The position numbers and the translations under genes were made by a program. From Myxococcota bacterium (GTDB taxonomy: Bacteria > Myxococcota_A > UBA9160 > UBA4427), in the NCBI GenBank assembly GCA_965250285.1, contig OZ252299.1:4448001-4512000 (forward strand): a DNA stretch of 64,000 nucleotides, in the 5' to 3' direction. The first letter of the stretch is position 1. Each line of letters starts with the position of its first letter. Under the pieces are notes generated by a model. That model did no database searches and was not told where the DNA came from. It saw only the letters and a program-made list of their open reading frames with translations. Shown piece by piece: positions 9,257-36,655 of the stretch.

Positions 9257-10279
9257 ATGCCGAGCCCCTCGTTGGCGACCCAGCGCATGACCCCGACGTA
9301 CTTTCGCCTGCTACTGCGAAACCTCGGGTTGCCCCGCGGCCAGATCGAGAAGGCCCTCGCGAGCGTCGAGCTGAGTCCGTCGGTCGTGGCCGATCTCGAT
9401 CGCCCCGTCACGGTGAGTCAGCAGCTCGAGCTCTTCGCGCACCTCGTGCGGCAGCGGCCGGCGGACGGATGGCTGCGCGCCGGTCGGCGTTTTCACGTCG
9501 GCACGCACGGCTCTCTCGGCGTCGCCTTCATGAGCGCGCCCGACGTGAAGACGAGCCTCGAGATCCTCGAGCGCTTCGGACCCGTTCGCCTGCCCTATGC
9601 GCGGCCGCGCACCGCCAGCCTGCGCGGGGGTCGCTACGCGCTCGGGTTCGACGTCACGCCGAAGGTCGATCCGCGCGCGCGGGTCGCCATGATGGAAGTG
9701 ATCGCCGTCGTTCGGAAGCATCTACTCGACGCGGTGACGGGCGAACCGATCTCGGGCGTCACGTTCGAGTTCGACTACCCCGCGCCCCGACACGCATCGC
9801 TGTACGAAGATGAGCTCGGCGTGCCCGTGCGCTTCGACCGCCCGAGAACGGCGATGATCGTCCCCGAGTCGCTGCTTCGCCGGCCCTGCACGACGGCCGA
9901 TGCCGAGATGTTCCGGGCGGCCGTCGAGCGGCTCGAGCGTCGAGCACGCCAGCTCGAGGGCAGCCGACCGCTCGCGGCGCACGTCGAAGAGCTGCTCGAT
10001 TCGGCCGGCGATGCGGGTCTGCCCGTCGACGAAGCCGCACGAGCGCTCGGCATGTCGCGCCGCTCGCTCGCGCGCCACCTGACCGAAGCCGGCACGTCGT
10101 ACCGAGCTTTGCACGACCGACACAGAAGAACCCGTGCCGAGGCGCTGTTGCGCGACTCGAGCCTCGACGTGAACGAGATCGCCTGGCGCCTTGGCTACGG
10201 CAACGCCGCGAACTTCGGTCGCGCGACACGCCGGTGGTTCGGGATGCCGCCCGGGAAGTACCGCCAGTCGATCGAATGA
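9257..10279 (+). CDS. AraC family transcriptional regulator (divergent from the LLM operon)
   Basis: HGSLGVAFMSAP N-domain; C-terminal ARALGMSRRSLARHL and IAWRLGYGNAANFGRATRRWFG HTHs. Start set at in-frame ATG 9257. Confidence 0.9.
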   Translation: MPSPSLATQRMTPTYFRLLLRNLGLPRGQIEKALASVELSPSVVADLDRPVTVSQQLELFAHLVRQRPADGWLRAGRRFHVGTHGSLGVAFMSAPDVKTSLEILERFGPVRLPYARPRTASLRGGRYALGFDVTPKVDPRARVAMMEVIAVVRKHLLDAVTGEPISGVTFEFDYPAPRHASLYEDELGVPVRFDRPRTAMIVPESLLRRPCTTADAEMFRAAVERLERRARQLEGSRPLAAHVEELLDSAGDAGLPVDEAARALGMSRRSLARHLTEAGTSYRALHDRHRRTRAEALLRDSSLDVNEIAWRLGYGNAANFGRATRRWFGMPPGKYRQSIE

Positions 10280-10352
10280 GACTCAATCGGCACACTCATG
10301 TGTCGGTGACGACAGTACGCCGCCGGCAAGGACGCTCTGGCATACTGAATCG

Positions 10353-12767
10353 ATGCGACGACGCGACCCCGAACAGGAATCGTGGCGACCCGGTGCCGCG
10401 CTCGGTGAAGCGACCGATCGCGTCGCCTTCGGGCGCTTCGAGCTGAACGAGGATCGGTCGGAGCTGCGCTGCGACGGCGAGCCCGTGCGGCTCGGCTCGA
10501 AGGCCTTGAGCGTGCTGACCGTGCTGGTCGAACAAGCCGGGCGCTTCGTGGCGAAGGATCAGCTACTCGCGCACGTCTGGCCGAGGACGACGGTCAGCGA
10601 TGCATCGGTCTACACGACGCTCCGTGAGCTGCGGGCCGCGCTTGGCGACGACGGCCGCGGCCAGCAGCTGATCGAGACGAAGCGCGGACGGGGCTATCGC
10701 TTGACGGTTTCGGCGCGACGATCGCCGCCCGACTCGATGAGCATCGCTGAGATCGCAGATCGCTGGACCGAGCGGACGGGGCTCGCGGCGGCCCCGATCC
10801 TCACCGACTCGATCGTTCAGAGAACGAGCGGCCGACCCGAATGGGTCGATGCCTTGATCGAAGGCGTTGCCCAGGAGCGCGCCTCACCGTGGAATGCGGC
10901 GCGCCTCGTGGCGACGACGGCGTTGCCACGTCGTCTCTACGAGCGAGCCGATGAGCGGCTGGCCGGACTCGACCCCGACACGCATCAATTCTTGCGCGCC
11001 GCGGCGACGCTCGGCGGCGCCTTCGAACCCACGGTCGCCCTCGAGCTGGCGGGGGGCCGCGAAGCCGATCTCGACGCGCGGCTCGATGCGGCTTCGACGC
11101 GCGGCTTCATCGAGCCCGATCCCCACGAGCTGCGACGCATGCGGTTCTCCGACCCGAGCCTCGCCGAGGGATTCGCCGCGGGCGAGCCACTCTCGGAGCG
11201 AGCGTCGCTGCACGCCTCGGCGGCGCTGCTGCTCGCAGGTCGCAAAGACGATCGCGAGCTCGGACAACGCGCCGCGCTCCACGCTTTGCGCTCGAATCTC
11301 CCCGCTGCGCGGATCTTCGAGCTCTGCCTCGATGCGGCGCGCGCATCGATCGCCGACGGTGCCAGAGAAGACGGCCTCGTACTGCTCCACGCGGCGGTCA
11401 CCGTCGCGAAGGCCGTCGACGTCGCGGCCCGCTACCAGGCGCTGATCGAGCTCGGCGACGCCCTCTTTCTCACGGGCGATCCCGACTCGGCCCGCAAGCA
11501 ATTCGGCCAAGCAATCGACCTTGCGAACGAACTCGACGACCCGACGCGGCTCGCCGAAGCCACCCTCGGCTTCGCGGGGACGAACAACCACGTCGACACC
11601 GGCCTGGCTTCGACCCATCGCACGCGGCTGATCGAAACGGCGCTCCGACACGCCGACCGCCTGTCGACGTCGCTCGTGGCAGCGCTCCGGGCTCGACTCG
11701 CGCTCGAGCTCGCCTGGGCGCAGCGCCCGACTGAAGCGCGACGCATGGCCGATCTGGCTCGGGCGGCCATCGACCGGGGAGAAGTCTCGGATGCGCTCGC
11801 CTCGCGTGCGCTGCACGACGTGTTCTGGTCGACGTGGTCGCCCGACAACCTCGAAGATCGCATCGCGATCGCGAGCGCGATGCGCGATCGGTCGATGTCG
11901 GCGGGGCAGACCGAGGCGAACGCGATGGCGGTTGCGCTGCATGCCGCCGCCATGCTCGAGCGCGGTGAACGCGTCGAGGCCGATTCGGCGTACCTCTCGG
12001 CCACCGAACGCGTCGGGCCGGATCAGGCCGCGATCGAGCTGCTGCGGTCGGGTCGCGAGGTGTGCATGGCCTTGCTCGAGGGGCGCTTCGACGAGGTCGA
12101 AGGGCTGGCGATCCGTGCACATACGCTCGCTCGAGCGAACGGGTCGGTGAATGCCGACACGATCTACGCCGCCCAGATCGGCTGGCTGCGATTCGACCAG
12201 GGCCGACTCGGTGAGCTCGTGTCGGCCGTGGCGGGCAGCCTCGACGCGCCTCGGTTCGAGCAACGCGCCGGTCGAGCGCTGATCTTCGCCTACGCGGGGC
12301 GCGGCACCGAGGCGCGACGTGAGCTCGACGATCTCGTGGGCCACATCGATGCCATCCCGCGCGATTCGTTCTGGATGGCGACGCTGACGATGCTCATCGA
12401 GATCGCCGCGCATCTCGGCGCCAGCGATGCGGCCGGCGTGCTCTACGAGCGGCTTCTGCCGTATGCCGACCGCGCGGTGCTGCTCGGGATCCGGACGGTG
12501 TGTCGCGGCTCGGCCGAGCTCTATCTCGGGCTGGCCGCCCGCGCGCAAGGTGCGCACGAGCAGGCACAACTGCACTTCGAGCGAGCGGCCCAGGCCAACG
12601 CAAGGCTGCGAGCAGCGCCGCTGCTCGCACGGTCGCTGCTGCTCTGGGCCGATTGCACGGAGCAGCTCGGCGCGAGCGACGCAGTCGACGAGATCGCATC
12701 GGCTCGCGACGAAGCGCAGCGGATCCGCGCGCAGCTCGGCCTCGCAACGCACGCGAGCGCCGACTGA
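10353..12767 (+). CDS. OmpR/CadC-type winged-helix regulator with STAND-like helical/TPR region but no P-loop
   Basis: FGRFEL...LLAHVWP...LRAALGDD...IETKRGRGYRL wHTH followed directly by RTSGRP/LRAAATLG helical region and TPR-like repeats; no Walker A or B seen. Confidence 0.8.
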   Translation: MRRRDPEQESWRPGAALGEATDRVAFGRFELNEDRSELRCDGEPVRLGSKALSVLTVLVEQAGRFVAKDQLLAHVWPRTTVSDASVYTTLRELRAALGDDGRGQQLIETKRGRGYRLTVSARRSPPDSMSIAEIADRWTERTGLAAAPILTDSIVQRTSGRPEWVDALIEGVAQERASPWNAARLVATTALPRRLYERADERLAGLDPDTHQFLRAAATLGGAFEPTVALELAGGREADLDARLDAASTRGFIEPDPHELRRMRFSDPSLAEGFAAGEPLSERASLHASAALLLAGRKDDRELGQRAALHALRSNLPAARIFELCLDAARASIADGAREDGLVLLHAAVTVAKAVDVAARYQALIELGDALFLTGDPDSARKQFGQAIDLANELDDPTRLAEATLGFAGTNNHVDTGLASTHRTRLIETALRHADRLSTSLVAALRARLALELAWAQRPTEARRMADLARAAIDRGEVSDALASRALHDVFWSTWSPDNLEDRIAIASAMRDRSMSAGQTEANAMAVALHAAAMLERGERVEADSAYLSATERVGPDQAAIELLRSGREVCMALLEGRFDEVEGLAIRAHTLARANGSVNADTIYAAQIGWLRFDQGRLGELVSAVAGSLDAPRFEQRAGRALIFAYAGRGTEARRELDDLVGHIDAIPRDSFWMATLTMLIEIAAHLGASDAAGVLYERLLPYADRAVLLGIRTVCRGSAELYLGLAARAQGAHEQAQLHFERAAQANARLRAAPLLARSLLLWADCTEQLGASDAVDEIASARDEAQRIRAQLGLATHASAD

Positions 12768-12825: not shown

Positions 12826-12924
12826 ATTCGGGCTGCCAACATCTCTCGGTGACGGCCGCAGGTGACCCGACGAGGTCCTCCGGTCGTGCGTCCGACGCGC
12901 GGTTCACGACTGAGGGATCGAGAG

Positions 12925-14736
12925 ATGAATGCACACAGCCTGTCGAGAGGCACCGAGATTCGGCTCTCACCCATGCCAAGGCCGCGCGCCAGGTGGGCGC
13001 ATTCCGCGACTCGATCCCCGCGCTGGGTCCCGACCGTCATCGCGGCGGTCTGGATCGGGCTCTCGCCGATGGCGTCGGCGCAGACCGTGCTCTATCACAG
13101 CCCGGCCGACGACGGCGCTGCAGCGACGGAGCCCGCCCTCGTCCCGGCCGGATCCTCGGCCTCTCTCTATCTGTACTGGGCGTCGGGACCGGCCGCGTCG
13201 AGTGCGGCCGAGGAGGTCTGCTCCGCGGGAGACGGGGACGAGATCTGCGCCGGGCAGATCGAGCTGCGCGCGGAGGGGTCGTTCTCGATCGACGCCTTCA
13301 CCCCCGATGCCGCGGCCAACATCGTCTTCGCCGCGTCGCCCACGAGCCTCTCGATCAACGTGCTCGACCCGATCGGGCCCACGCCCGGCGTGAAACGGCT
13401 CGGGCAGCTCGACGTCACGACCGATCTCTCCACCGACTGCACGGCCACCGCGTGCGAGGTCGTCGTGGACCAGTTCGACGTCGTCGAGGCCGACCTCGCC
13501 ATCGCCGCGGGGAGCTTCACGACGCCCACGAGTGCCATCGCGGTTCCAGAGCCCGGGCTGCCCCTGGCCTTCGGCTTCGGCGTCGCCCTGCTCTCTCTAT
13601 TGGCGCGAAGGCGGCGACACGGTGTCAGGAACATCGTCGCAACGACCTTCATCGCGTCGAGCGCGACCCTCATCGCCGTCACCCCCGCCGAAGCCCAGCT
13701 GGAGGTGCTCGAAGACGCGCACTACATCACACGCTGCGCCGGTTCGGAACGGGACCTCCCCGTCGCGAACACGTCGTTCTGCGATCGGCCGAGGGCGTAT
13801 GCCTGGACCGGGCCCCAGGGCGTGTCGATGGCGAGCGGCGAGGCGGTCGTCTCGGCCGAAGCGTTCTCGAGCCGTCCCCGGATCCCGAAGGGCATCCCCG
13901 AAGAGCTCGCTTTGCGATTGCAGCCCCTCCTGGCCGAGCCCTTCGTCGCAATCGCGTTCGTCCAGGCGTCGGCGACCTACGAGACGAGCGGCCCCTTCAA
14001 TCCCCCGCCCGGCGGCACCGGCTTCAACTCGATCGCGATCGACGGCACGGCCGCGGTCGAGGCGACCTTCACCGTGCGACAGAAGGCCACCCCACCCATC
14101 GCAACGACGGTCGTTCCGCTGCGTCTTCGCGTCTTGGGCGAGATGACCATCAATGGCGTCGGCAACACCCAGGGTACCTTTCGGGTCACCGTCAACGGCG
14201 ACGTCGACAACGCGTTCGAGTTCATCCAGTCGGCGACCGGCTTCTACAGCGTGAACAGCGAGTTCCCGGGCGAGATCTTCGAGATCGAAGTCGGGCAGAC
14301 CTTCATCAAGCTGGTGCAGTGCTCGGCCGAAGCCCGCTGGCCCGGCGTCCCCGGCTTCTGCTCAGCCGTGCTCGACCCCATCATCGAGCTCGACCAGGAG
14401 ACCACCGATGCGCTCCTCGGCCCCAACACCTTTCCCCTCGCCGACTACTTCGAGATCGAGTACAGCGAGAACTTTCTGACCGACGCGCCGGCGAACATCT
14501 GCGGCGACGTCACCCTCGACGAGTTCGTGCTCGAATCCGACCTCGACCTTCTTCGGCAGAGCTTCATCGGCCAGGCCAGCCTCTCGGCCGATGCACTCGA
14601 TCGCTGCGCGACGCGCGCCGAGTCGACCGGCTGCGACCTCGCCGACGCCGTCGTCCTCGCTCGCACGGTGCAGGGCGGCGCCGCGCCGCGGGCGCCGGGG
14701 ATCGCGCCCGCCTGTGCCGCCGTCACGAGCCCATGA
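12925..14736 (+). CDS. Secreted protein with internal PEP-CTERM, second signal peptide and C-terminal dockerin-like domain
   Basis: Signal ...IGLSPMASA|Q (13081); VPEP at 13543 + TM + RRRR; then IVATTFIASSATLIAVTPAEA|Q (13696); C-terminal CGDVTLD...DLDLLR...CDLADAVVLAR. GAGGGA upstream of ATG 12925. Confidence 0.8.
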   Translation: MNAHSLSRGTEIRLSPMPRPRARWAHSATRSPRWVPTVIAAVWIGLSPMASAQTVLYHSPADDGAAATEPALVPAGSSASLYLYWASGPAASSAAEEVCSAGDGDEICAGQIELRAEGSFSIDAFTPDAAANIVFAASPTSLSINVLDPIGPTPGVKRLGQLDVTTDLSTDCTATACEVVVDQFDVVEADLAIAAGSFTTPTSAIAVPEPGLPLAFGFGVALLSLLARRRRHGVRNIVATTFIASSATLIAVTPAEAQLEVLEDAHYITRCAGSERDLPVANTSFCDRPRAYAWTGPQGVSMASGEAVVSAEAFSSRPRIPKGIPEELALRLQPLLAEPFVAIAFVQASATYETSGPFNPPPGGTGFNSIAIDGTAAVEATFTVRQKATPPIATTVVPLRLRVLGEMTINGVGNTQGTFRVTVNGDVDNAFEFIQSATGFYSVNSEFPGEIFEIEVGQTFIKLVQCSAEARWPGVPGFCSAVLDPIIELDQETTDALLGPNTFPLADYFEIEYSENFLTDAPANICGDVTLDEFVLESDLDLLRQSFIGQASLSADALDRCATRAESTGCDLADAVVLARTVQGGAAPRAPGIAPACAAVTSP

Positions 14737-25547: not shown

Positions 25548-26099
25548 ATGTTCCGGGTGGTCGAGTTCCGAGCGAATGCGACTGAAGCAACGGCTGGGCG
25601 GGTCGGCGGCGGCCTCGTCTCGTTTGCGATGATCTTCGCGCTGGCCGGCTTGGTCGCGGCGCCGATCTCGGCCGAAGACGACCACGGTCACCACGATCAC
25701 GCGGCACCCCACGGTGGCACGCTCGTCGTCTTCGGCGACGAGGTCGCCCACGTCGAGTTCGTCGTCGACGAAGAAAATGGGGAGATCACCGCCTACGTGC
25801 TCGACGGCGAGGCAGAGCGCGGCGTCGCGGTTCAGCAGGCCTCGCTGACCGTGGTGATCGAGCCGGCATCGGGTCCCGACTTCGAAGTCGCTCTGTCGCC
25901 CGTCGAGAACGTCCTGACCGGAGAGACCCGAGGCAACACGTCTCAGTTCTCGGGTCGGTCCCCGAAGCTCGAGGGTCTTCACCACTTTCACGGCGAGATC
26001 CGAACACTCGAGATCAAGGGGCAGCGGTTCGAAGACGTCGCGTTCAGATTCCCCGAAGGCAACGAAGACCATGCCCATCCTGCGGAGAAGGCACCATGA
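25548..26099 (+). CDS. Secreted His-rich putative metal-binding protein
   Basis: Hydrophobic signal ...LAGLVAAPISA|EDDHGHHDHAAPHGG; C-terminal EDHAH. Exact start uncertain. Confidence 0.7.
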   Translation: MFRVVEFRANATEATAGRVGGGLVSFAMIFALAGLVAAPISAEDDHGHHDHAAPHGGTLVVFGDEVAHVEFVVDEENGEITAYVLDGEAERGVAVQQASLTVVIEPASGPDFEVALSPVENVLTGETRGNTSQFSGRSPKLEGLHHFHGEIRTLEIKGQRFEDVAFRFPEGNEDHAHPAEKAP

Positions 26100-26710
26100 G
26101 TGAGGATGCCCCGCCCACGCCGAGCGAACGAAAGAAGCCGACGACGGCCGCCCGCGTGGTGAAGTACGTCGTGATCACGACCTACGTCGTCGGGTTCTTG
26201 AGCTCGCCGCAGTGGCTGCCGCTCATGTTCCCGGAGACGCCCGTCGTCACCGAGCAGGCGGCGCTGGATGGCGTCGAAGCACAGGATTTCGAGACCATCT
26301 CGTGGAACCGGCTCGGCGGCTTCCCGTACGAGTTCGAGATGGCCGGCTTCCTCGACGACGCGTCGCCCGAGGTGCTCGCCGAACGCAACGAACGATTGAT
26401 CCCGACCGAAGTGCGCGCCCTCGACGGCCAACCGGTCGCGGTGCGCGGCTACGCGATCCCCGTCTCGATCTCGCAGGGCCGGGTCACCGACTTCATCCTC
26501 GCCGCCAAGAACGAGATCGGCTGCTGCTTCGGGGCCGGCCTGGCCATGAATCAGTGGATCCATGTCGCCGTGCCCGAGGGCCAGGTCTTCGACATCGAGC
26601 CCTACGAGATCGCCACGATCCTCGGGCGACTCGAGGTCGGCGAGGAGGTGAAGCAGGGCACCGTGCTGAGCCTCTACCGCCTGCGCGACGCGACGGCCCG
26701 CCGCGGGTGA
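26096..26710 (+). CDS. DUF3299 family protein
   Basis: ALDGQPVAVRGYAIP, DFIL...GCCFG...NQWIHV, GRLEVG, YRL; ATGA overlap with upstream gene. Confidence 0.75.
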   Translation: MSEDAPPTPSERKKPTTAARVVKYVVITTYVVGFLSSPQWLPLMFPETPVVTEQAALDGVEAQDFETISWNRLGGFPYEFEMAGFLDDASPEVLAERNERLIPTEVRALDGQPVAVRGYAIPVSISQGRVTDFILAAKNEIGCCFGAGLAMNQWIHVAVPEGQVFDIEPYEIATILGRLEVGEEVKQGTVLSLYRLRDATARRG

Positions 26711-27384
26711 CAGCGGCGCTTCACATCGAGGGGCTCCGAAAGAGCTACACCACACCCGAAGGCGAGCGCCAAACGGTGATCGACCTGCCGTCGTTCTCGA
26801 TCGACGCGGGGGAGCAGGTCGCGCTGCACGGGCGCAGCGGCTGCGGCAAGACCACCCTGCTCCACCTCATCGCCGGCATCCTGAGCCCCGACGCCGGTCG
26901 CATCGTCGTGGCGGGCGAAGAGATCACCGTACAGTCCGAAGGCGAGCGCGACCGCACGCGCGGTCGACTGATCGGCTACGTATTCCAGAGCTTCAACCTG
27001 CTCGGTGCCTACTCTGCGCTCGAGAACGTGCTCCTCGCCATGCACTTCGGCGAAGGGGAGAGCGCCGACCGCGCGGCCGAGCTGCTCGAGCGCGTGGGGC
27101 TCGGCGATCGGATGCACTACCGACCCCCTCAGCTCTCGATCGGGCAACGGCAGCGCGTCGCCGTCGCCCGCGCGCTGGCCAACCAGCCGGCGCTGGTGCT
27201 CGCCGACGAACCGACGGGCAACCTCGACCCCGAGAACGCCGCATCGTCGCTCGCTCTACTCAGAGACACGGCGCACGAGATGGGCGCCGCGATGCTGCTC
27301 GTGAGCCACGACGACGAGATCTTGCGCGCATTCGATCGCTGCGAAGAGTTCGGCGAGCTCGCGCGCGCAGGAGCCGAACGTTGA
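26707..27384 (+). CDS. ABC transporter ATP-binding protein (LolD/MacB-like)
   Basis: GRSGCGKTT, LSIGQRQRVAVARAL, LADEPTGNLD; GTGA overlap at 26707-26710. Confidence 0.92.
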   Translation: MTAALHIEGLRKSYTTPEGERQTVIDLPSFSIDAGEQVALHGRSGCGKTTLLHLIAGILSPDAGRIVVAGEEITVQSEGERDRTRGRLIGYVFQSFNLLGAYSALENVLLAMHFGEGESADRAAELLERVGLGDRMHYRPPQLSIGQRQRVAVARALANQPALVLADEPTGNLDPENAASSLALLRDTAHEMGAAMLLVSHDDEILRAFDRCEEFGELARAGAER

Positions 27385-28640
27385 GGGCGGGGCTCGGCCT
27401 GCTCGTCCGGCGCAGCTTGCGCGAGCATCTCTTCTCGAGCTGCATCACGATCGCATCGGTCGGCCTCGCCACCGGGCTGGTGCTCGCCGTGTTTGCGATT
27501 CAGGAGCAGAGCCTGCGCGCGTTCGCTGGGGGACCGCTCGGCTTCGACGCCGTGCTCGGCGCGCGGGGCAGTCAGCTACAGCTGGTGCTCAACGCCGTAT
27601 TCCATCTCGAGACGTCGCCGGGCAACATCCCGTGGACGCTCTACGAAGCCATCGAGCGCAATCCCCAGGTCGAACGCGCGATCCCCTACGCCGTCGGCGA
27701 CAACTACCAAGGCTTTCGCATCGTCGGGACGGTGCCGGCGCTGTTCGATGCGAAGGACGACGATGGCCGACCGCCGCTGCGCGTCGCGCCGGGCGGGCGG
27801 CTCTTCGATTCGGATCGGTCCGAGGCCGTCATCGGCGACCAGGTCGCGCGTGCGACCGGTCTCGGTCTCGGCGATCGCTTTCATCCCTATCACGGTCTCG
27901 TTTTCGACGAGGATGCGCGGCACGCCGAGGAGTACGTCGTCGCGGGTGTGCTCGAGTCGAGCAACACACCCGCAGATCGCGTCATCTGGATCCCGATCGA
28001 CGGGATCTACCGAATGGCTGGCCACGTGCTCAAGGGGAGTGGCGAAGTCTACGAGGCCGGCGCGCAGGCCGAGATCCCCGACGAGCACAAGGAGGTGAGC
28101 GCGGTCATGCTGAAGCTGTCCGCGCCGCAGGCCGGCTTCATGCTCGACCAGATGATCAACAAGCAGGGCAAGATCGCCACGCTCGCTTGGCCGATCGGCG
28201 GCGTGATGGTGGATCTCTTCGATAAGCTCGGCTGGGCGATTCGGGTGCTGGGCCTGGTGGCCTATCTCGTCGTGCTCGTCGCGGCCGGCTCGATCGTCGC
28301 GAGCATCGTCAACACCATGCAGGAGCGAAGCCGCGACTTCGCGGTGCTGCGCGCACTCGGTGCGCGTCGCTTCACGGTCTCAGCCGCGATCGTGGGCGAA
28401 GCGGCGAGCATCGGCGCCCTCGGCGCGCTGATCGGCTTCGCGGTGTATGCGGCGATCTTCGGCCTCGCGCGCGCGGTCGTGCGCACTGAGACCGGGGTCG
28501 TCCTCGACCCGTGGATGTGGCATCCGGTCTTCGTGATCGCACCCGCTGCGGTGATCGGGCTCGCAGCGGTCGCGGGCCTGATCCCCGCGCGACTCGCCTA
28601 CCGCACGGACGTCGCCACGCACCTGCTGCCGCCGAGCTGA
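27381..28640 (+). CDS. ABC transporter permease (FtsX/MacB-like)
   Basis: GARGSQLQLVLNAVFH, GDNYQGFRIVGT, ERSRDFAVLRALGA, TM helices. Confidence 0.9.
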   Translation: MRAGLGLLVRRSLREHLFSSCITIASVGLATGLVLAVFAIQEQSLRAFAGGPLGFDAVLGARGSQLQLVLNAVFHLETSPGNIPWTLYEAIERNPQVERAIPYAVGDNYQGFRIVGTVPALFDAKDDDGRPPLRVAPGGRLFDSDRSEAVIGDQVARATGLGLGDRFHPYHGLVFDEDARHAEEYVVAGVLESSNTPADRVIWIPIDGIYRMAGHVLKGSGEVYEAGAQAEIPDEHKEVSAVMLKLSAPQAGFMLDQMINKQGKIATLAWPIGGVMVDLFDKLGWAIRVLGLVAYLVVLVAAGSIVASIVNTMQERSRDFAVLRALGARRFTVSAAIVGEAASIGALGALIGFAVYAAIFGLARAVVRTETGVVLDPWMWHPVFVIAPAAVIGLAAVAGLIPARLAYRTDVATHLLPPS

Positions 28641-29771: not shown

Positions 29772-32417
29772 ATGTGGCGCATCGGTCCGTATCGACTCGA
29801 CCCATCGACGTTCACGCTCGACCGAGACGGCGAGCCGATCGCGCTGCAGCGTCGCCCCTACGATCTCCTCTTGTATCTCGTTGCCCACAGCGACCGAGTC
29901 GTCTCGCGCGACGAGCTGTTGCGAGAGGTGTGGGGTGGCATATCGGTCGCTTCGGGCGCGGTGAGCACGGCCGTGTACGAGGTTCGAGCCGCGCTCGGCG
30001 ATCTCGAGCGACCGCGCGACGAACGCTTGATCGAGACGATCCGCGGGCGGGGCTTCCGTTTTCGCGGATCGGGTCAGGTGACCGAGGCAGACCGACCGAA
30101 CCACGACGCCCTGCCCTTCATTGGCCGCGGTCGAGTGCTCGATCGCTTGCGTACGCGGCTCGAAGCCGCGCGACGCGGTCGCGGCGGCGCCCTCGTGGTC
30201 GAGGGGCGCGCCGGGATCGGCAAGACCCGCGTCCTCCAGGAGCTCGTCGGAGAGTTGAGCGGCTTCGCGATCGAGACGGTGCACTGCGAGCCCGGTGCGC
30301 CTCCGCTCTGGCCTTGGACGCAGCTGCGGCAATCGCTCGGACACGCCGACGCCGTCGCATCGCCCGTCGAGCTCGACGAGGCAGAAGACGACGCCCGCCT
30401 GCACTTCGAGCGCATCGGGCGCTACGCGGAGCTGCTCGGCGAGGCGTCGCTCGCGCATCCCGTCGTCGTCCTGATCGAGGATCTTCACTGGGCCGATCCA
30501 TCTTCGCGTGCCGTCCTCGAATCGCTCGCACCGCGCCTCTCAAATGAGCGCGTGCAGATCATCGCGACCGAGCGAAGCGAAGGCGACCGCGAGCCCGAGG
30601 GCGAGCGCGTCGGATCGAGTCGGGTGGAGCGGGTTCGTTTGAGCGCACTTCGAACGACGCAGCTCTACCCCTTCATCGAGTCGATCCTAGGAAGAATCCC
30701 GTCGCCCGAGCTCGTCGGATGGATCGAGCGCCACAGCCAGGGCATTCCACTGATGGTCCGCGAGCTCGCCGAGCGCGTCTCGATCGAAGGCGAGTCATTG
30801 ATCGATGTGCCTCGAATCGCCGGGCTCGTCTTCGCCCATCGTTTCGATCGGCTCGACGCGACCTCTCGACTGGCGATCGGGGTCGCGTCGCTCTGCGGGA
30901 TCCGGTTCGACGCGCCGCTGGTCGAAGCCGCCGCGGGCGATGCCCTCCCCGCCGATCGTGTGTGGATTCGCGAGGGCCTGCAGTCGGGCATCCTCGTCCA
31001 CGTCACGGGACATCCGCTGCGCTTCGCGTTTCGTCATGCGCTGCTGAGGGACGCGGCCGAGAGCATGCTCGAAGCGACATCGGTGTCGGGCTGGCATCGG
31101 CGGCTGGCGTCGGCGATCGAGCGAGGGAGGCCCGAGCCGGTCGGATCGACGCTGTCGCAACTCGCCCGCCACTCAGCCGCCGCGGCCGTCGAGCAGGCCG
31201 ATGTGAGCGGCCCGCTCCACTACGCTCTGCTCGCGGCGCAACGCGCTGCCCGTGTGTTCGAGTGGGCCGAGGTCGCGACCCACACGGCTCACGCACTGAG
31301 CTGGATCGAGTATGCCCCCCCTGGCCTCGATCGCGATCGCCAGGAGATCGAAGCAGCGCTCCTGCGCTGCGCAGCGATCGCTTCGTCCACCGGCCACGTC
31401 GAAGAGACCGCCGCGTTGCTCGAGCGAATCGACCCCCTCCTGCCACGATGCGGCGCCCCGTGGGCGCGCGGCGCGGCGGAGGCGTTCCAGTTCTCGAACG
31501 CGAGATGCGTCGGTGACTACGATCGCGCCTGGCAAGCCATCGAGGTGATCGAGCTTCAGCCCGAGCTCGCACGGGTCGCCGACTGTTGGCGACGCACGCT
31601 CACCGTCGCGACGGGCGACTTCTCTCCGTCGGCCGACGACGCGGACTGGGGCGCACGCCTGCCGCTCGACCCCGAGTTCCACGCGTTCGCTCGGCTCTCG
31701 GGGCGAGATCCCGGGATCGACCGATTGGGGCACGTCGCGCTCGCACACTTCGCGCGCGGCGAAGATGCGCGGGCCGTCGCCTGCGCCGAGCGTGCGGTGG
31801 CCTGGGCCGATGCGAGCGGCGACGCCCGCGGACGCATCTGGGCGCTCTTCCTCTTGTGCACGGTGCACGAGATGCGTCGCGACTGGGGCGAGCTTCGACG
31901 CCTCGCGCCCGAGATCGATCAGGCGGGCCGACGGACCGGGCTGAGCGCCTGGCTCGGCGTGGGGGCCGGGTTTCGGCTCTGGGCCGAGGCACGCGAGAAG
32001 GGCGATCCAAGCCCGGCGCTCATGCCGCTTGCGCGGATCCTTCACGACCGCGGCCGATCGACGAGCACCACCCTGACGACCCCTCTCCTGCTCTTCGCGA
32101 GCCGGGTGTTCAGCTGGAGCGGCGCGCACGAAACCGCTGCACGCGTGGCGCGCGAGGGCATCGCGTGGGTCGAACGCACGGGGGAGCACATGGTCTCGGC
32201 CGAGCTGTACCGGCAGCTCGGCCACGCCCTCGATCGAGGCGCTGCGCCCGAGGAGGCCGCCGCGGCCAGGCGGCGCGGCATCGAGCTCGCGCGCCGGCAA
32301 GGTCACGTCGTCAGCGAAGCCCGAGGCCTGCGCGATCGCCAGCGGGCCGGCGTCGCCACGCCGACCGAGCTGACCCGCCTGCTCGAGCTCGAAGAGACGC
32401 CTCCGGCAGAGACGTAG
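29772..32417 (+). CDS. Winged-helix + AAA/STAND ATPase + TPR-like transcriptional regulator
   Basis: wHTH (SRDELLREVW...IETIRGRGFRF), FIGR, Walker A GRAGIGKT, Walker B LIEDLHWAD, FAFRHALLRD. Confidence 0.88.
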   Translation: MWRIGPYRLDPSTFTLDRDGEPIALQRRPYDLLLYLVAHSDRVVSRDELLREVWGGISVASGAVSTAVYEVRAALGDLERPRDERLIETIRGRGFRFRGSGQVTEADRPNHDALPFIGRGRVLDRLRTRLEAARRGRGGALVVEGRAGIGKTRVLQELVGELSGFAIETVHCEPGAPPLWPWTQLRQSLGHADAVASPVELDEAEDDARLHFERIGRYAELLGEASLAHPVVVLIEDLHWADPSSRAVLESLAPRLSNERVQIIATERSEGDREPEGERVGSSRVERVRLSALRTTQLYPFIESILGRIPSPELVGWIERHSQGIPLMVRELAERVSIEGESLIDVPRIAGLVFAHRFDRLDATSRLAIGVASLCGIRFDAPLVEAAAGDALPADRVWIREGLQSGILVHVTGHPLRFAFRHALLRDAAESMLEATSVSGWHRRLASAIERGRPEPVGSTLSQLARHSAAAAVEQADVSGPLHYALLAAQRAARVFEWAEVATHTAHALSWIEYAPPGLDRDRQEIEAALLRCAAIASSTGHVEETAALLERIDPLLPRCGAPWARGAAEAFQFSNARCVGDYDRAWQAIEVIELQPELARVADCWRRTLTVATGDFSPSADDADWGARLPLDPEFHAFARLSGRDPGIDRLGHVALAHFARGEDARAVACAERAVAWADASGDARGRIWALFLLCTVHEMRRDWGELRRLAPEIDQAGRRTGLSAWLGVGAGFRLWAEAREKGDPSPALMPLARILHDRGRSTSTTLTTPLLLFASRVFSWSGAHETAARVAREGIAWVERTGEHMVSAELYRQLGHALDRGAAPEEAAAARRRGIELARRQGHVVSEARGLRDRQRAGVATPTELTRLLELEETPPAET

Positions 32418-32596
32418 ACGCGGCTCGCCGGGGTCCTCGCAGCGGCCGCGCAGCAAGGCGGCACTTCGAGCGCCGAAACACACGAACTGAAGAAACGCTG
32501 AACCTTCCGGGCGGAGCGAGCGCCCTTTGGGACGAGAAAGCGCGGCATGCTGTTTCGGCGCGGGAACGGGTGGCACCGATCCCCAGGAGACTCGAA

Positions 32597-34480
32597 ATGG
32601 CGCCCAGCGAAGCAGATCCCACCACCCCGGCGACGGCCGACTCTCGCCCCGCGTGGGGACGGGTCGTCGGGCTCGTCGTGGCGATCTTCGGGTTCGTCTG
32701 CGCCAGCCCCTCCGTCGCGCAGGAGATCGTGCGCGCGTCCCCCGATGTGACGATCCCCATTGGCGCCGCAGCCGTGGTCACGCGCGACGATCAGGTCGCC
32801 GTCGACGACCGTCTCGGCGCCGTCACGGCCGACGTACTCGTCGGCATCCCCGAGACCGCGGCGATCGCGGCCTTCTCTCGCGTCGGCGCGTCGTACGCCG
32901 TGGCCTTCGAGACGCAGACCCAGCTGCCGGGCGGGCTCATCGCCGACCCGGCCGACGTCGTCGTCTACGATGCGCTCAACGCGGCCTACAAGATCTTCTT
33001 CGACGGCTCGGGCCTGCCGCTCGGCACCCGGGTCGATGCGGTCTCGTTCGCCGGAAGCGCGCTGCTTCTGTCGTTCGGCGAGCGCACGAACCTGGGATTC
33101 ATCGTCGACGACGAAGACGTCGTTCGCTGGGACGGGAGCTTCTATACGCTCGCCTTCGATGGCTCGGCGGCGGGCCTCGATCCGGCCGTCGACACCGACG
33201 CGGTTCAGATGCTCGGACCGAATACACTGCTGTTGAGCTTCGACATCACGGGCGCGGTGGGCGGCATCGTGTTTCGCGATGAAGACGTGATGCGCTTCGA
33301 AGACGGTGTATGGAGCCTCGAGTACCAGGCGGCGGCCAGCGAGCCGAGCTGGATCGCGGCCGACCTCGACGCCATGACCGTGCCCGAGCCAACGACGGGG
33401 CCGCTCTTCGTGGCCGGCTTCGCTTCGCTCGCGGCAATGGCCGCGCGCAGACGGCGGCGCCGGGGCCCCGTTGCTGTGACGTGCACGCTGGCGATCGCGG
33501 CGCTGACCCTGGGCCCCGCCACAGGGGCCGGCGCGAGCGAGGGACGCCTCGAAATCAACCACACCTGCGCCACGCAGACGGGCTGCGGCGCGGGCGACAC
33601 GCCGGGCTATCCGGTCACGATCACGAGCGCGAGTCGGCGCAGCATCGTGCTGACGAGCAACCTCGTCGTACCCGACGCATCGACGACCGCCATCGACATT
33701 CTGGTCAGCGACGTCACGGTCGACCTCGCAGGCTTCTCGATCCTGCGCAGCGGCTGCGAAGGCGCGACGGCGAGCTGCACGGATACGTCGGCGAGCAACG
33801 CCGGCATCCGCGCCATCGGCTCTCCCAGTCCGAGCATCGAGCTGTACGGCTTCCGGGTGTACGGCGGCAGCGCCATCGGCTTCAGCGACGGGGTCGTGCT
33901 CGGGTACGCATCCGAGATTTCGAACGTGCGCGCACGTTGGAACCGCTTCTCGGGCATCGGAACGATCGGGTACGGCGGCCTGCTCTTCGACAACACGACG
34001 CTCGAGAACCCCGAGTTCGGCGTCACTACCGGAACGTTCGGGCCCAGTGTCGCGATCGGCAATCGAACCCATCAGAACGGTGTCGGCCTCATCGGGACTG
34101 GCAGTGCCCTGGTGCTGGCCGACAACGTCGGGTTCGAGAACAGCGTCGGCGGCTTTTCGACGAGCACGTCGACCAGCGTATTCGTGTCGAATACGAGCTA
34201 CGGCAATGCGGGCAACGGGCTCACCGTCTCGCCCGGCGAAGCCGCGATCTTCGAAGTGAATACGGTCTACGACAACACAGACGGGATCTTCGGTGGCGAC
34301 GGCACCCTCGCGCGGGGCAACGTGGCGCGGAACAACTCGGGCATTGGCATCCGACTCGGCCCGGACGGTGGCTATCGCGAGAACGTCCTGACGAACAACG
34401 CGGGGGGCCAAGTGAGCTCGGGGATCAACCTCGGCGACAACGCCTGCTCGGGGCCATCGGGGGTGGCGCCATGTCCGTGA
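32597..34480 (+). CDS. Secreted protein: repeat domain + internal PEP-CTERM + second signal peptide + right-handed beta-helix domain
   Basis: AGGAGA RBS; signal ...FVCASPSVA|Q (32720); VPEP at 33380 + TM + RRRRRR; GPVAVTCTLAIAALTLGPATGAGA|SEGRLEINHTC (33536); N-x-x-x-x-N-x-x-x-G repeats. Confidence 0.85.
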   Translation: MAPSEADPTTPATADSRPAWGRVVGLVVAIFGFVCASPSVAQEIVRASPDVTIPIGAAAVVTRDDQVAVDDRLGAVTADVLVGIPETAAIAAFSRVGASYAVAFETQTQLPGGLIADPADVVVYDALNAAYKIFFDGSGLPLGTRVDAVSFAGSALLLSFGERTNLGFIVDDEDVVRWDGSFYTLAFDGSAAGLDPAVDTDAVQMLGPNTLLLSFDITGAVGGIVFRDEDVMRFEDGVWSLEYQAAASEPSWIAADLDAMTVPEPTTGPLFVAGFASLAAMAARRRRRRGPVAVTCTLAIAALTLGPATGAGASEGRLEINHTCATQTGCGAGDTPGYPVTITSASRRSIVLTSNLVVPDASTTAIDILVSDVTVDLAGFSILRSGCEGATASCTDTSASNAGIRAIGSPSPSIELYGFRVYGGSAIGFSDGVVLGYASEISNVRARWNRFSGIGTIGYGGLLFDNTTLENPEFGVTTGTFGPSVAIGNRTHQNGVGLIGTGSALVLADNVGFENSVGGFSTSTSTSVFVSNTSYGNAGNGLTVSPGEAAIFEVNTVYDNTDGIFGGDGTLARGNVARNNSGIGIRLGPDGGYRENVLTNNAGGQVSSGINLGDNACSGPSGVAPCP

Positions 34481-35529
34481 GCCATCTCGAAGCGGCTCCG
34501 CGCGCCCGTTCTCCGTTCGGCCGACGGGGCGGGTATCGCGCCGCTCTGCTCGCCTTCGCCCTCTTCATGGCGGGCAGCGATCGTGCCTTCGCGAGCGACG
34601 GATTGGTCGAGCTCGACCAGCTGTGTGCCGTTCATTCGGGCTGCATGGCGGGCGACACGCCGGGCTTCCCGATCACAATCACCGGCGCAGGGGGCCGCAG
34701 CTTCATCCTGACGACCAACCTCATCGTGCCGGGCGGCGGGACCAATGCGATCTCGATCGACGCAACCGACGTCTCGATCGATCTGAACGAGCACACGATT
34801 CTGCGTTCGGAGTGCGTCGGCGCCACGACCGACTGCAGCAGCACCGCGTTCGGTGCGATCGCGATCGTACAGACAGCGCCGGCGGCAGCCGCTGGCGGTG
34901 CGACCGTCCGAGATGGGCGGATCCTGGGTTTCGGGCAAGGCCTGCTTCTCGGTCGGGGTGCGGAGGTTCGCAACGTCGTCACGCGATGGATTCGCGGCGC
35001 CGGCATCTCTTCGCGCGGTCACGGCACGCTCCTATTCAGCAACACCGTGGATCAGTGCTTCGGGAGCCTGCTCGCGAACAGCATCGATCCGGGCGGGGTG
35101 GCGATCGGCAATCGCGTTTCGGGCGGTGCGAGCTTTGGCTTCGCGGTGAACCAACCGGGCATCGTCGTCGTCGACAACGTCGCGCTCGAGAACGGCGCGG
35201 TCGGGCTCTTGGCCAGTGAAAGCGCAGTGATGGTCGACAACGTCGCCCAGGGGAACACGACGTACGGCCTGACCGCCGACGAAGGCTCGGTCGTCATTCG
35301 AAACACCGCCCATGACAACGACCAGGGGGGCCTGTTCGTACAGGGCGGCTCTCTGGTCCGAGGCAACGTCGCACGCAGCAGCTCGATCGGCCCGGGCATC
35401 ACGGCAGCCGCACCGACGGGCCAGGGGCATCTGGAGAACGTCTCGAGCAACAACGCCGGCGGCGACGTCGTGGGCCCGCGCGTCGACCTGGGTGCCAATG
35501 CATGTGGCGGAACACCCGGGTGCCCCTGA
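34471..35529 (+). CDS. Secreted right-handed parallel beta-helix protein (paralog 2)
   Basis: Signal ...ALLAFALFMAGSDRAFA|SDGLVELDQLC...GDTPGFPITI; ends DLGANACGGTPGCP; start overlaps upstream stop (ATG 34471 or GTG 34477). Confidence 0.85.
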   Translation: MSVSHLEAAPRARSPFGRRGGYRAALLAFALFMAGSDRAFASDGLVELDQLCAVHSGCMAGDTPGFPITITGAGGRSFILTTNLIVPGGGTNAISIDATDVSIDLNEHTILRSECVGATTDCSSTAFGAIAIVQTAPAAAAGGATVRDGRILGFGQGLLLGRGAEVRNVVTRWIRGAGISSRGHGTLLFSNTVDQCFGSLLANSIDPGGVAIGNRVSGGASFGFAVNQPGIVVVDNVALENGAVGLLASESAVMVDNVAQGNTTYGLTADEGSVVIRNTAHDNDQGGLFVQGGSLVRGNVARSSSIGPGITAAAPTGQGHLENVSSNNAGGDVVGPRVDLGANACGGTPGCP

Positions 35530-35647: not shown

Positions 35648-36655
35648 ATGACGCAGAACCGCACCCGACCCACCTCGCTCGCGGCGGCCCTGGCCGCCGC
35701 GAGCCTCGGCGTCGCACTGTACGCGCCGTCGGCGGCGGCGCTCGACGGTCGCTTCGAGCTGAATCAGCTGTGCGCGACCGTCACCGGCTGCATTCAGGGC
35801 GACACGCCCGGCTTTCCCATCACGCTGACGGTGGCGGCAACGGCTGGCTACGTCTTGACGAGCGAACTCGTCGTCCCCGACGCGAATACCTCGGCGATCG
35901 TGATCTCGGCGAACGACGTGCACATCGACCTGAACGGGTTTCGCATCGTTCGCAGCGGGTGCGAGAACGCCGTCGCCACGTGTGAAGCCGCGAGCGGATC
36001 GGGCGATGGCATCGGCGTCGACGACTTCTCGCTTCGACGCGGAACGAGCGTGACGAACGGCAACGTCGTCGGGATGGGCCGATACGGACTGCTCCTGGGC
36101 CCGCAGGCCCATGTGACGCACATTCAGGCGCGTTGGAATCGTCTCGAGGGCATCGCCGTGAACGAGAGCGGGCGCGTGCATCGCGTTCGCTCGATCGAGA
36201 ATGGAGGCGCGGGGATCTCGGTCGCCAGCGGCTCGACGGTGTCGGAAAGTGCAGCCGTCGGAAACGGCGGCGCCGGCATCTTCACCGCGACGGGATGCCA
36301 CGTCGTCCGCAACGTCGCCTGGGACAATGACGCTCAGGGCATCCGCAGTACGACCGGCTCGGTGATCCGACACAACGCCGTCGGCGACAACGGCAACATC
36401 GCGGGCATCCAGGCCGCCGCTTCCACCGTGGCGGGCAACGCCGTTGCGAACCAATCGGGCGGGCCGGGCATTCTCGCGACGACCGGCTCGATGGTCGAGT
36501 CGAATGCGATCACCGATACGGCCCTCGGCAGCGAAGGGCTCTCGCTCGGAGACGCGGGCTACCGTGGCAACGTGCTGACCGACAACCCCACTGGCCATGT
36601 CACGGGCGGAATCAACCTGGGCGCGAACGCCTGCGACGGAGTGCTCTGCCCCTAG
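35648..36655 (+). CDS. Secreted right-handed parallel beta-helix protein (paralog 3)
   Basis: AAGGAG RBS; signal ...LYAPSAAA|LDGRFELNQLC...GDTPGFPITL; ends NLGANACDGVLCP. Confidence 0.88.
   Translation: MTQNRTRPTSLAAALAAASLGVALYAPSAAALDGRFELNQLCATVTGCIQGDTPGFPITLTVAATAGYVLTSELVVPDANTSAIVISANDVHIDLNGFRIVRSGCENAVATCEAASGSGDGIGVDDFSLRRGTSVTNGNVVGMGRYGLLLGPQAHVTHIQARWNRLEGIAVNESGRVHRVRSIENGGAGISVASGSTVSESAAVGNGGAGIFTATGCHVVRNVAWDNDAQGIRSTTGSVIRHNAVGDNGNIAGIQAAASTVAGNAVANQSGGPGILATTGSMVESNAITDTALGSEGLSLGDAGYRGNVLTDNPTGHVTGGINLGANACDGVLCP

Follow-up and report, generated by a model that had tools for sequence, protein, structure and literature searches.

Proteins of the PEP-CTERM class (TIGR02595, PF07589) combine an N-terminal signal peptide with a PEP motif, a transmembrane helix and an Arg cluster, and are found in genomes that hold many copies of the tag as well as exosortase genes. 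According to the main text of Haft 2006 (PMC1569441), fewer than ten residues follow the tag in 87% of the published set, and long-tailed copies are said there to be ones that "may represent non-functional examples". Cleavage of even the terminal tags is still to be investigated according to PMC9850573.

Sorting tags in the middle of a chain have both curated and published precedents. A mid-chain exosortase cut is already a curated idea in the family NF033207 (midcut-by-XrtH), on which we found no paper; 251 searched genomes yielded three members above the cut-off (45 bits), in all of which a first signal, an IPxL-type tag, a helix and a basic patch precede another hydrophobic stretch, whose last residues are IHA, ARA or LHA, and a further domain. 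One gene that yields two proteins through an internal signal-peptidase-type site was reportedly described by Thony-Meyer in 1991, i.e., the FbcH cytochrome b-c1 precursor of Bradyrhizobium, which, unlike the protein reported here, reportedly serves a respiratory membrane complex, carries no sorting tag and is not a reusable linker. In Haloferax, HVO_0405 is a fusion of two genes with a central tag for an exosortase-family enzyme, and ArtA has been shown to cut this tag; the protein is archaeal and is described as strain-specific, and a second export signal is not mentioned in the main text (PMC7157517). For MXAN_5598 of Myxococcus, the main text of PMC11980579 gives an internal MYXO-CTERM tag followed by an envelope domain, and proposes both an origin by gene fusion and processing of the N-terminal part; this is a single case with a myxosortase tag and enzyme, and no second signal peptide is described for it there. 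Our search for internal tags covered main texts (Table S1 of PMC11980579 may list more), among which those of Haft 2023 and 2011 gave no passage on the subject, and it found no paper on a polyprotein that joins a PEP-CTERM tag to a second signal, which Haft 2012, Abdul Halim 2017 and Thony-Meyer 1991 may anticipate.

Here we report on a gene (ORF 32597..34480, + strand; protein P0001) in a window, i.e., the analyzed stretch, of 64,000 nucleotides from a Myxococcota bacterium whose genome is a single 6.25-Mb metagenome contig; the nearest named homologues of this genome are mostly labelled Myxococcota or Deltaproteobacteria. Unlike common PEP-CTERM substrates, P0001 does not have its tag in the terminal position, as 338 residues follow the Arg cluster and comprise another signal-like segment as well as an entire domain. 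The gene also differs from NF033207, in which an IPTL-type tag and exosortase H go with a short peptide before the tag, in that P0001 has a VPEP tag behind a folded domain of 220 aa. P0001 is not a member of that family, as it was not among the matches and the genome has none over the cut-off; its homologues P0011, the only one with an IPTL-type mid-chain tag, and P0002 scored 19.7 (E 7e-4) and 14.3, respectively. A PEP tag and second signal after a folded domain is thus a variant of already known internal-tag layouts, and the view, taken at first, that the layout is unprecedented had to be abandoned in light of NF033207, MXAN_5598 and HVO_0405. Overall, the sequence comparisons below suggest that one gene was formed from two genes for exported proteins, and that its product is probably threaded out-in-out through the inner membrane and cut into two mature proteins.

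Layout, relatives and origin of the fused gene

Translation gives a stop-free frame of 627 aa that begins with ATG 32597 behind a Shine-Dalgarno sequence (AGGAG, 32585..32589, +; anti-SD pairing -7.4 kcal/mol). The first signal peptide (signal 1; aa 1-41, 32597..32719) has its hydrophobicity peak at aa 23-41 and a predicted cut SPSVA|Q, which places Q42 at 32720; homologues end in register with AxA|Q or similar. It is followed by cargo 1 (aa 42-261, 32720..33379), which AlphaFold2 models as an all-beta, three-repeat domain with propeller-like blades (pLDDT 93.6). The internal PEP-CTERM tag (aa 262-289, 33380..33463) consists of VPEP, starting at aa 262 (33380), a transmembrane helix that is also present in the model, and six Arg (aa 284-289); aa 262-288 match TIGR02595 with 23.4 bits against a cut-off of 16, while Pfam PF07589 scores 19.9, slightly below its cut-off of 20.7. 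The second signal-like segment (h- and c-region, aa 290-313, 33464..33535) contains a hydrophobic stretch at aa 292-304 (Kyte-Doolittle 13-window 2.16) and ends at a predicted signal peptidase I site, AGA|S, within GAGA|SEGRLEIN, so that the mature part would start at S314 (33536); a basic n-region, a hydrophobic h-region and small residues at -3 and -1 are all present. Cargo 2 (aa 314-627, 33536..34480) comprises a Cys-containing cap and a right-handed beta-helix, with PF13229 above cut-off at aa 432-570. In the AlphaFold2 model, two confident domains are linked by low-confidence helices at residues 268-288 and 291-304. An earlier note made from the DNA alone had described a single uninterrupted frame with both signals, VPEP, RRRRRR, an AxA site and a beta-helix; translation and HMMs bear this out, including the TIGR02595 search that it proposed.

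The function of the two cargo domains was not found with Pfam, PDB sequences, Foldseek or the Atlas, which returned unnamed clusters only (0.93-0.95). Cargo 1 had no Pfam match and, in Foldseek, matched Kelch propellers only (TM about 0.4, rmsd about 8), and cargo 2 had no PDB relative by sequence. The modelled combination of an all-beta domain, which would be extracellular, and a beta-helix suggests binding to a surface or to polysaccharides. In relatives, the N-domain (32720-33379) is also found to end in 'IF.DGFE'-type tails or in other domains. Downstream, two free-standing beta-helix paralogues on the same strand carry their own signal peptides, as the earlier note had stated; these end AFA|SDGLVELDQ (34471..35529) and AAA|LDGRFELNQ (35648..36655), respectively. 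The more likely start of the first paralogue, ATG 34471 (anti-SD pairing -9.9 kcal/mol), overlaps the stop of ORF 32597..34480. Upstream, a cluster at 25548-28640 encodes a His-rich exported protein, a DUF3299-like protein and an ABC transporter, a combination that, as judged from sequence, is suggestive of metal export or uptake.

Homology searches, which had been proposed as a check for an internal tag and signal in relatives, found 27 proteins, 10 of which are fused like P0001, cover 73-99% of the query and show 35-62% aligned identity. Among 76 genome loci, both domains were located in one ORF in 13 ORFs. In a quick tree of the N-domain, the gene is placed inside an all-fused clade of six (SH-aLRT 99), and comparative evidence of this kind indicates that the layout is real, old and stable. 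Quick trees required 13 changes between fused and split states for the C-domain and 8 for the N-domain, of which the starred branches force only 2; the trees are compatible with a single as well as with a repeated origin of the fusion. At 15 loci the N-domain occurs alone with a terminal PEP-CTERM, and at one locus (L011) the N- and C-domain genes are separate neighbours in the same order as in the fusion; two other pairs of a tag gene and its neighbour (L147, L150) are one in-frame stop away from fusion. Two adjacent genes probably became fused when the in-frame stop separating them was lost, and the spacer was probably shortened afterwards, a scenario that would fit the observed range of 45 to 77 residues between tag and mature start. 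The tag itself varies among homologues, as P0011 has IPTL instead of PEP and retains signal 2, and three others show a decayed motif, PES or PEI. P0016, a beta-helix homologue, has signal 1, about 15 residues, a helix, an Arg cluster and signal 2 in succession, with no PEP motif, and resembles a midcut-like remnant.

Predicted topology and processing

We propose that Sec would export cargo 1, with signal peptidase I removing signal 1, that the PEP-CTERM helix would stop transfer with the six Arg remaining inside, and that the Arg cluster would then serve as the n-region of the second hydrophobic stretch, which would restart export. Basic clusters are cytoplasmic under the positive-inside rule; with the Arg cluster in the cytoplasm, helix 1 would run out-to-in and helix 2 in-to-out, and AGA|S would come to lie at the outer face, the side on which signal peptidase I is active. 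Signal peptidase I could then cut AGA|S and free the beta-helix, while the PEP tag would be the site of an exosortase cut, by which cargo 1 would be either set free or anchored anew, with a small two-helix stub left behind. This topology and all three cuts (signal peptidase I twice, exosortase once) are likely as judged from sequence, and we infer that the two mature proteins would be made at 1:1 stoichiometry. The predicted cut at AGA|S would, with high probability, suffice by itself to give two polypeptides. An out-in-out hairpin with a shared Arg cluster had been suggested before, and is now supported by conservation, by the free-standing paralogues and by the exosortase-family genes for which the earlier note had advised a search. 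Six PF09721 genes over the cut-off were found in the genome, with Cys, Arg and His motifs visible in each; two of them pass TIGR02602 and one is XrtT, and L006 scored 79.6 against TIGR04177 (exosortase H; cut-off 86).

Conservation of the second signal was assessed with the mature start set by a motif of the C-domain and with homologues picked by domain homology rather than by their junction. Position -1 is Ala and position -3 is A, S or V in 23/23 fused homologues, which are kin and not independent events, with position -2 being free (11 + 9 + 3 sequences from three sets, excluding P0009, a duplicate of L041, and P0016, which has a different layout). In free-standing C-domain paralogues (n = 78, excluding one extra row with <20 upstream residues), which each carry a signal of matching register, Ala is located at -1 in 72/78 and A or V at -3 in 70/78. 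Moreover, mean h-region hydrophobicity was 2.55 in 11 fused as compared to 2.55 in the 78 free-standing proteins. Counts at -1 and -3 over 241 profile-found junctions were excluded as evidence for cleavage, as they are circular, i.e., both the profile and the matrix select for these residues. These data indicate that the second hydrophobic segment behaves like a signal peptide.

If signal peptidase I were the only enzyme to act, the beta-helix would be released and cargo 1 would stay tethered by the two-helix hairpin with its PEP tag unprocessed. This seems unlikely to us, and it would still give two polypeptides from one gene. Low scores of internal tags, with only 1/13 other proteins scanned passing the TIGR02595 cut-off, are consistent with it, as are the PES and PEI variants and the remark on atypical copies in the main text of Haft 2006 (PMC1569441). 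Against it, VPEP is 90% identical to P0001 over ten homologues, as compared to 20% for the helix behind it, the tag of P0011 has been replaced by that of another exosortase (IPTL), and the central tag of HVO_0405 is cut, as stated in the main text of PMC7157517. An exosortase probably does act on the internal tag, by analogy with its archaeal homologue, which cuts a central tag, and because of the conserved VPEP and the swapped tag, though this is less sure than the cut by signal peptidase I because internal tags score low and because one study (PMC9850573) has left C-terminal cleavage of a PEP-CTERM protein open.

Absence of a second cut would leave a two-helix membrane protein that displays both domains outside. 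In its favor, signal 2 is at the weak end, with a score of 8.9 for the junction on a custom weight matrix trained on 74 free signals, whose 10th percentile is 10.0; three other junctions of the same genome score only 2.2-5.1. The junction of P0001 outscores 74/75 read-through controls on this matrix, and among ten homologues the identity to P0001 is 14% for h-region 2, 12% for signal 1 and 100% at the -1 position, with 49% and 40% in the two domains. As small residues at -1 and -3 are thus retained while neighbouring positions drift, and as the C-domain family otherwise consists of secreted proteins with a cleaved signal, we regard an uncut product as improbable.

A further alternative is a pair of nested genes, in which most of the beta-helix would come from initiation inside the ORF (ATG 33437 or GTG 33476) and the read-through chain would be incidental; we consider this quite improbable. 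Initiation at ATG 33437, which the earlier note had allowed for, would yield a normal-looking signal, but anti-SD pairing there is +1.9 kcal/mol, as compared to -7.4, -9.9 and -8.8 at three genuine start codons, and homologues do not retain the Met; this start is rejected on both counts. GTG 33476 overlaps a TGA in the +1 frame and pairs at -5.0 kcal/mol, a value that represents background because 7/26 internal start codons of the ORF reach -5. Moreover, no ATG, GTG or TTG occurs between the first helix and position -16 in 7/11 fused junctions, whereas in 61/78 free-standing genes an ATG pairs at -5 or better; L048 is an exception, as its spacer retains an ATG with a strong ribosome site. Cargo 1, in any case, can only arise within the long chain. 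An internal start for the beta-helix thus appears unlikely from the sequences.

An assembly error or a recent, non-functional loss of a stop, for which one might point to the single metagenome contig and to the in-frame neighbours one stop short of fusion, is already largely refuted and hardly credible, as contigs from two sequencing runs are identical across the junction, the fused clade spans about 0.5 changes per site and GC3 of the junction (0.86-0.87) is similar to that of both domains. The comparison used Logan contigs of sequencing runs rather than raw reads. In run X1 (depth 48), which may be from the source sample, one 18-kb contig was identical over 32500-35500, and in run X2 (another sample of the same study) a contig was identical over 32864-33766, with no indels listed for either; a miscalled stop, the first point that the earlier note wished to see checked, is thereby ruled out. 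Among the pieces listed for run X3, none bridges this junction, nor was it bridged in run X4 (a different strain at low share), and no RNA dataset with the locus was among those listed.

If a single chain cut into two exported proteins is indeed made, a C-terminal sorting tag would work mid-chain and could be chained with a second export signal, secreted polyproteins would be routine in bacteria, and the annotation of many large PEP-CTERM proteins as single proteins would be wrong. P0001 also offers a simple test for exosortase cleavage of PEP-CTERM and for the position of the cut. The loss of <30 residues by a terminal cut is difficult to see, while P0001 with signal 2 blocked would shift by >300 residues, in parallel to HVO_0405 with its archaeosortase in the main text of PMC7157517.

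Related junctions in the same genome and in databases

The genome contains 75 terminal tags as compared to six tight internal junctions with unrelated cargo plus one case with a long spacer (an ORF at 960376 with two paralogous halves, not counted among the six). A second ORF of the window (12853..14736, +; open frame, start not fixed) has the same junction joining unrelated domains, with VPEP at 13543 and AEA|Q at 13695, and this junction is spanned unchanged by contigs of X1, X2 and X3.

A junction profile built from 15 sequences gave full-length, stop-free matches in at least 14 of 40 relatives, among the matches listed; of 13 profile loci inspected, 10 were such junctions, 2 had an in-frame stop and 1 was a terminal tag. 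Against 1.84 billion representatives, the profile gave 713 matches at E 0.001, possibly including terminal tags. Among the best 150 of these 713, 149 were new, and the tag was internal in 137, with two or more internal tags in 63; P0028, which is encoded in a Planctomycetales genome, carries nine tags within the chain in addition to a terminal one. These matches indicate that the junction layout is conserved and widespread. We lean slightly towards the view that the junction of tag, Arg cluster and signal is a general, reusable bacterial polyprotein linker, with which exosortase and signal peptidase I would turn one frame into two to ten exported proteins. A linker of this kind would be a prokaryotic counterpart of the viral polyproteins processed by signal peptidase, and one chain with fixed stoichiometry would replace an operon of surface genes.

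Several individual loci show further combinations. On genome contig C1, L033 (2850730-2852523, +) contains two PEP-CTERM proteins in one frame, the second being a DUF4465 protein, and this fusion is kept in five relatives (G001, G003, G004, G018, G022). L035 (1404321-1410746, +) has the same junction between a short module, consisting of one YD-like repeat and a PEP tag, and an RHS-repeat/DUF6531 protein of about 1,900 aa. L036 (456539-470737, -) is a frame of 4,732 codons in which an internal PEP junction is followed by a very long, repeat-rich, adhesin-like protein, and its N-module is similar to the N-modules of the fusions at 12853 and 2966888. The long-spacer case, L037 (960376-962082, +), joins two paralogous PEP-CTERM proteins in one frame through a Met-containing spacer, and has the appearance of a recently lost stop. 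In the order sampled around G043, three loci (L114, L125 and L128) join two large domains through IPTL-like tags and a second hydrophobic stretch ending ALA or AWA, and score below the NF033207 cut-off. Within the window, genes for a regulator with a winged helix and an AAA ATPase (10191-12767, judged from sequence, and 29772-32417, called with Pfam) are located directly before both fused genes, and regulator and fused gene may represent a shared regulatory cassette.
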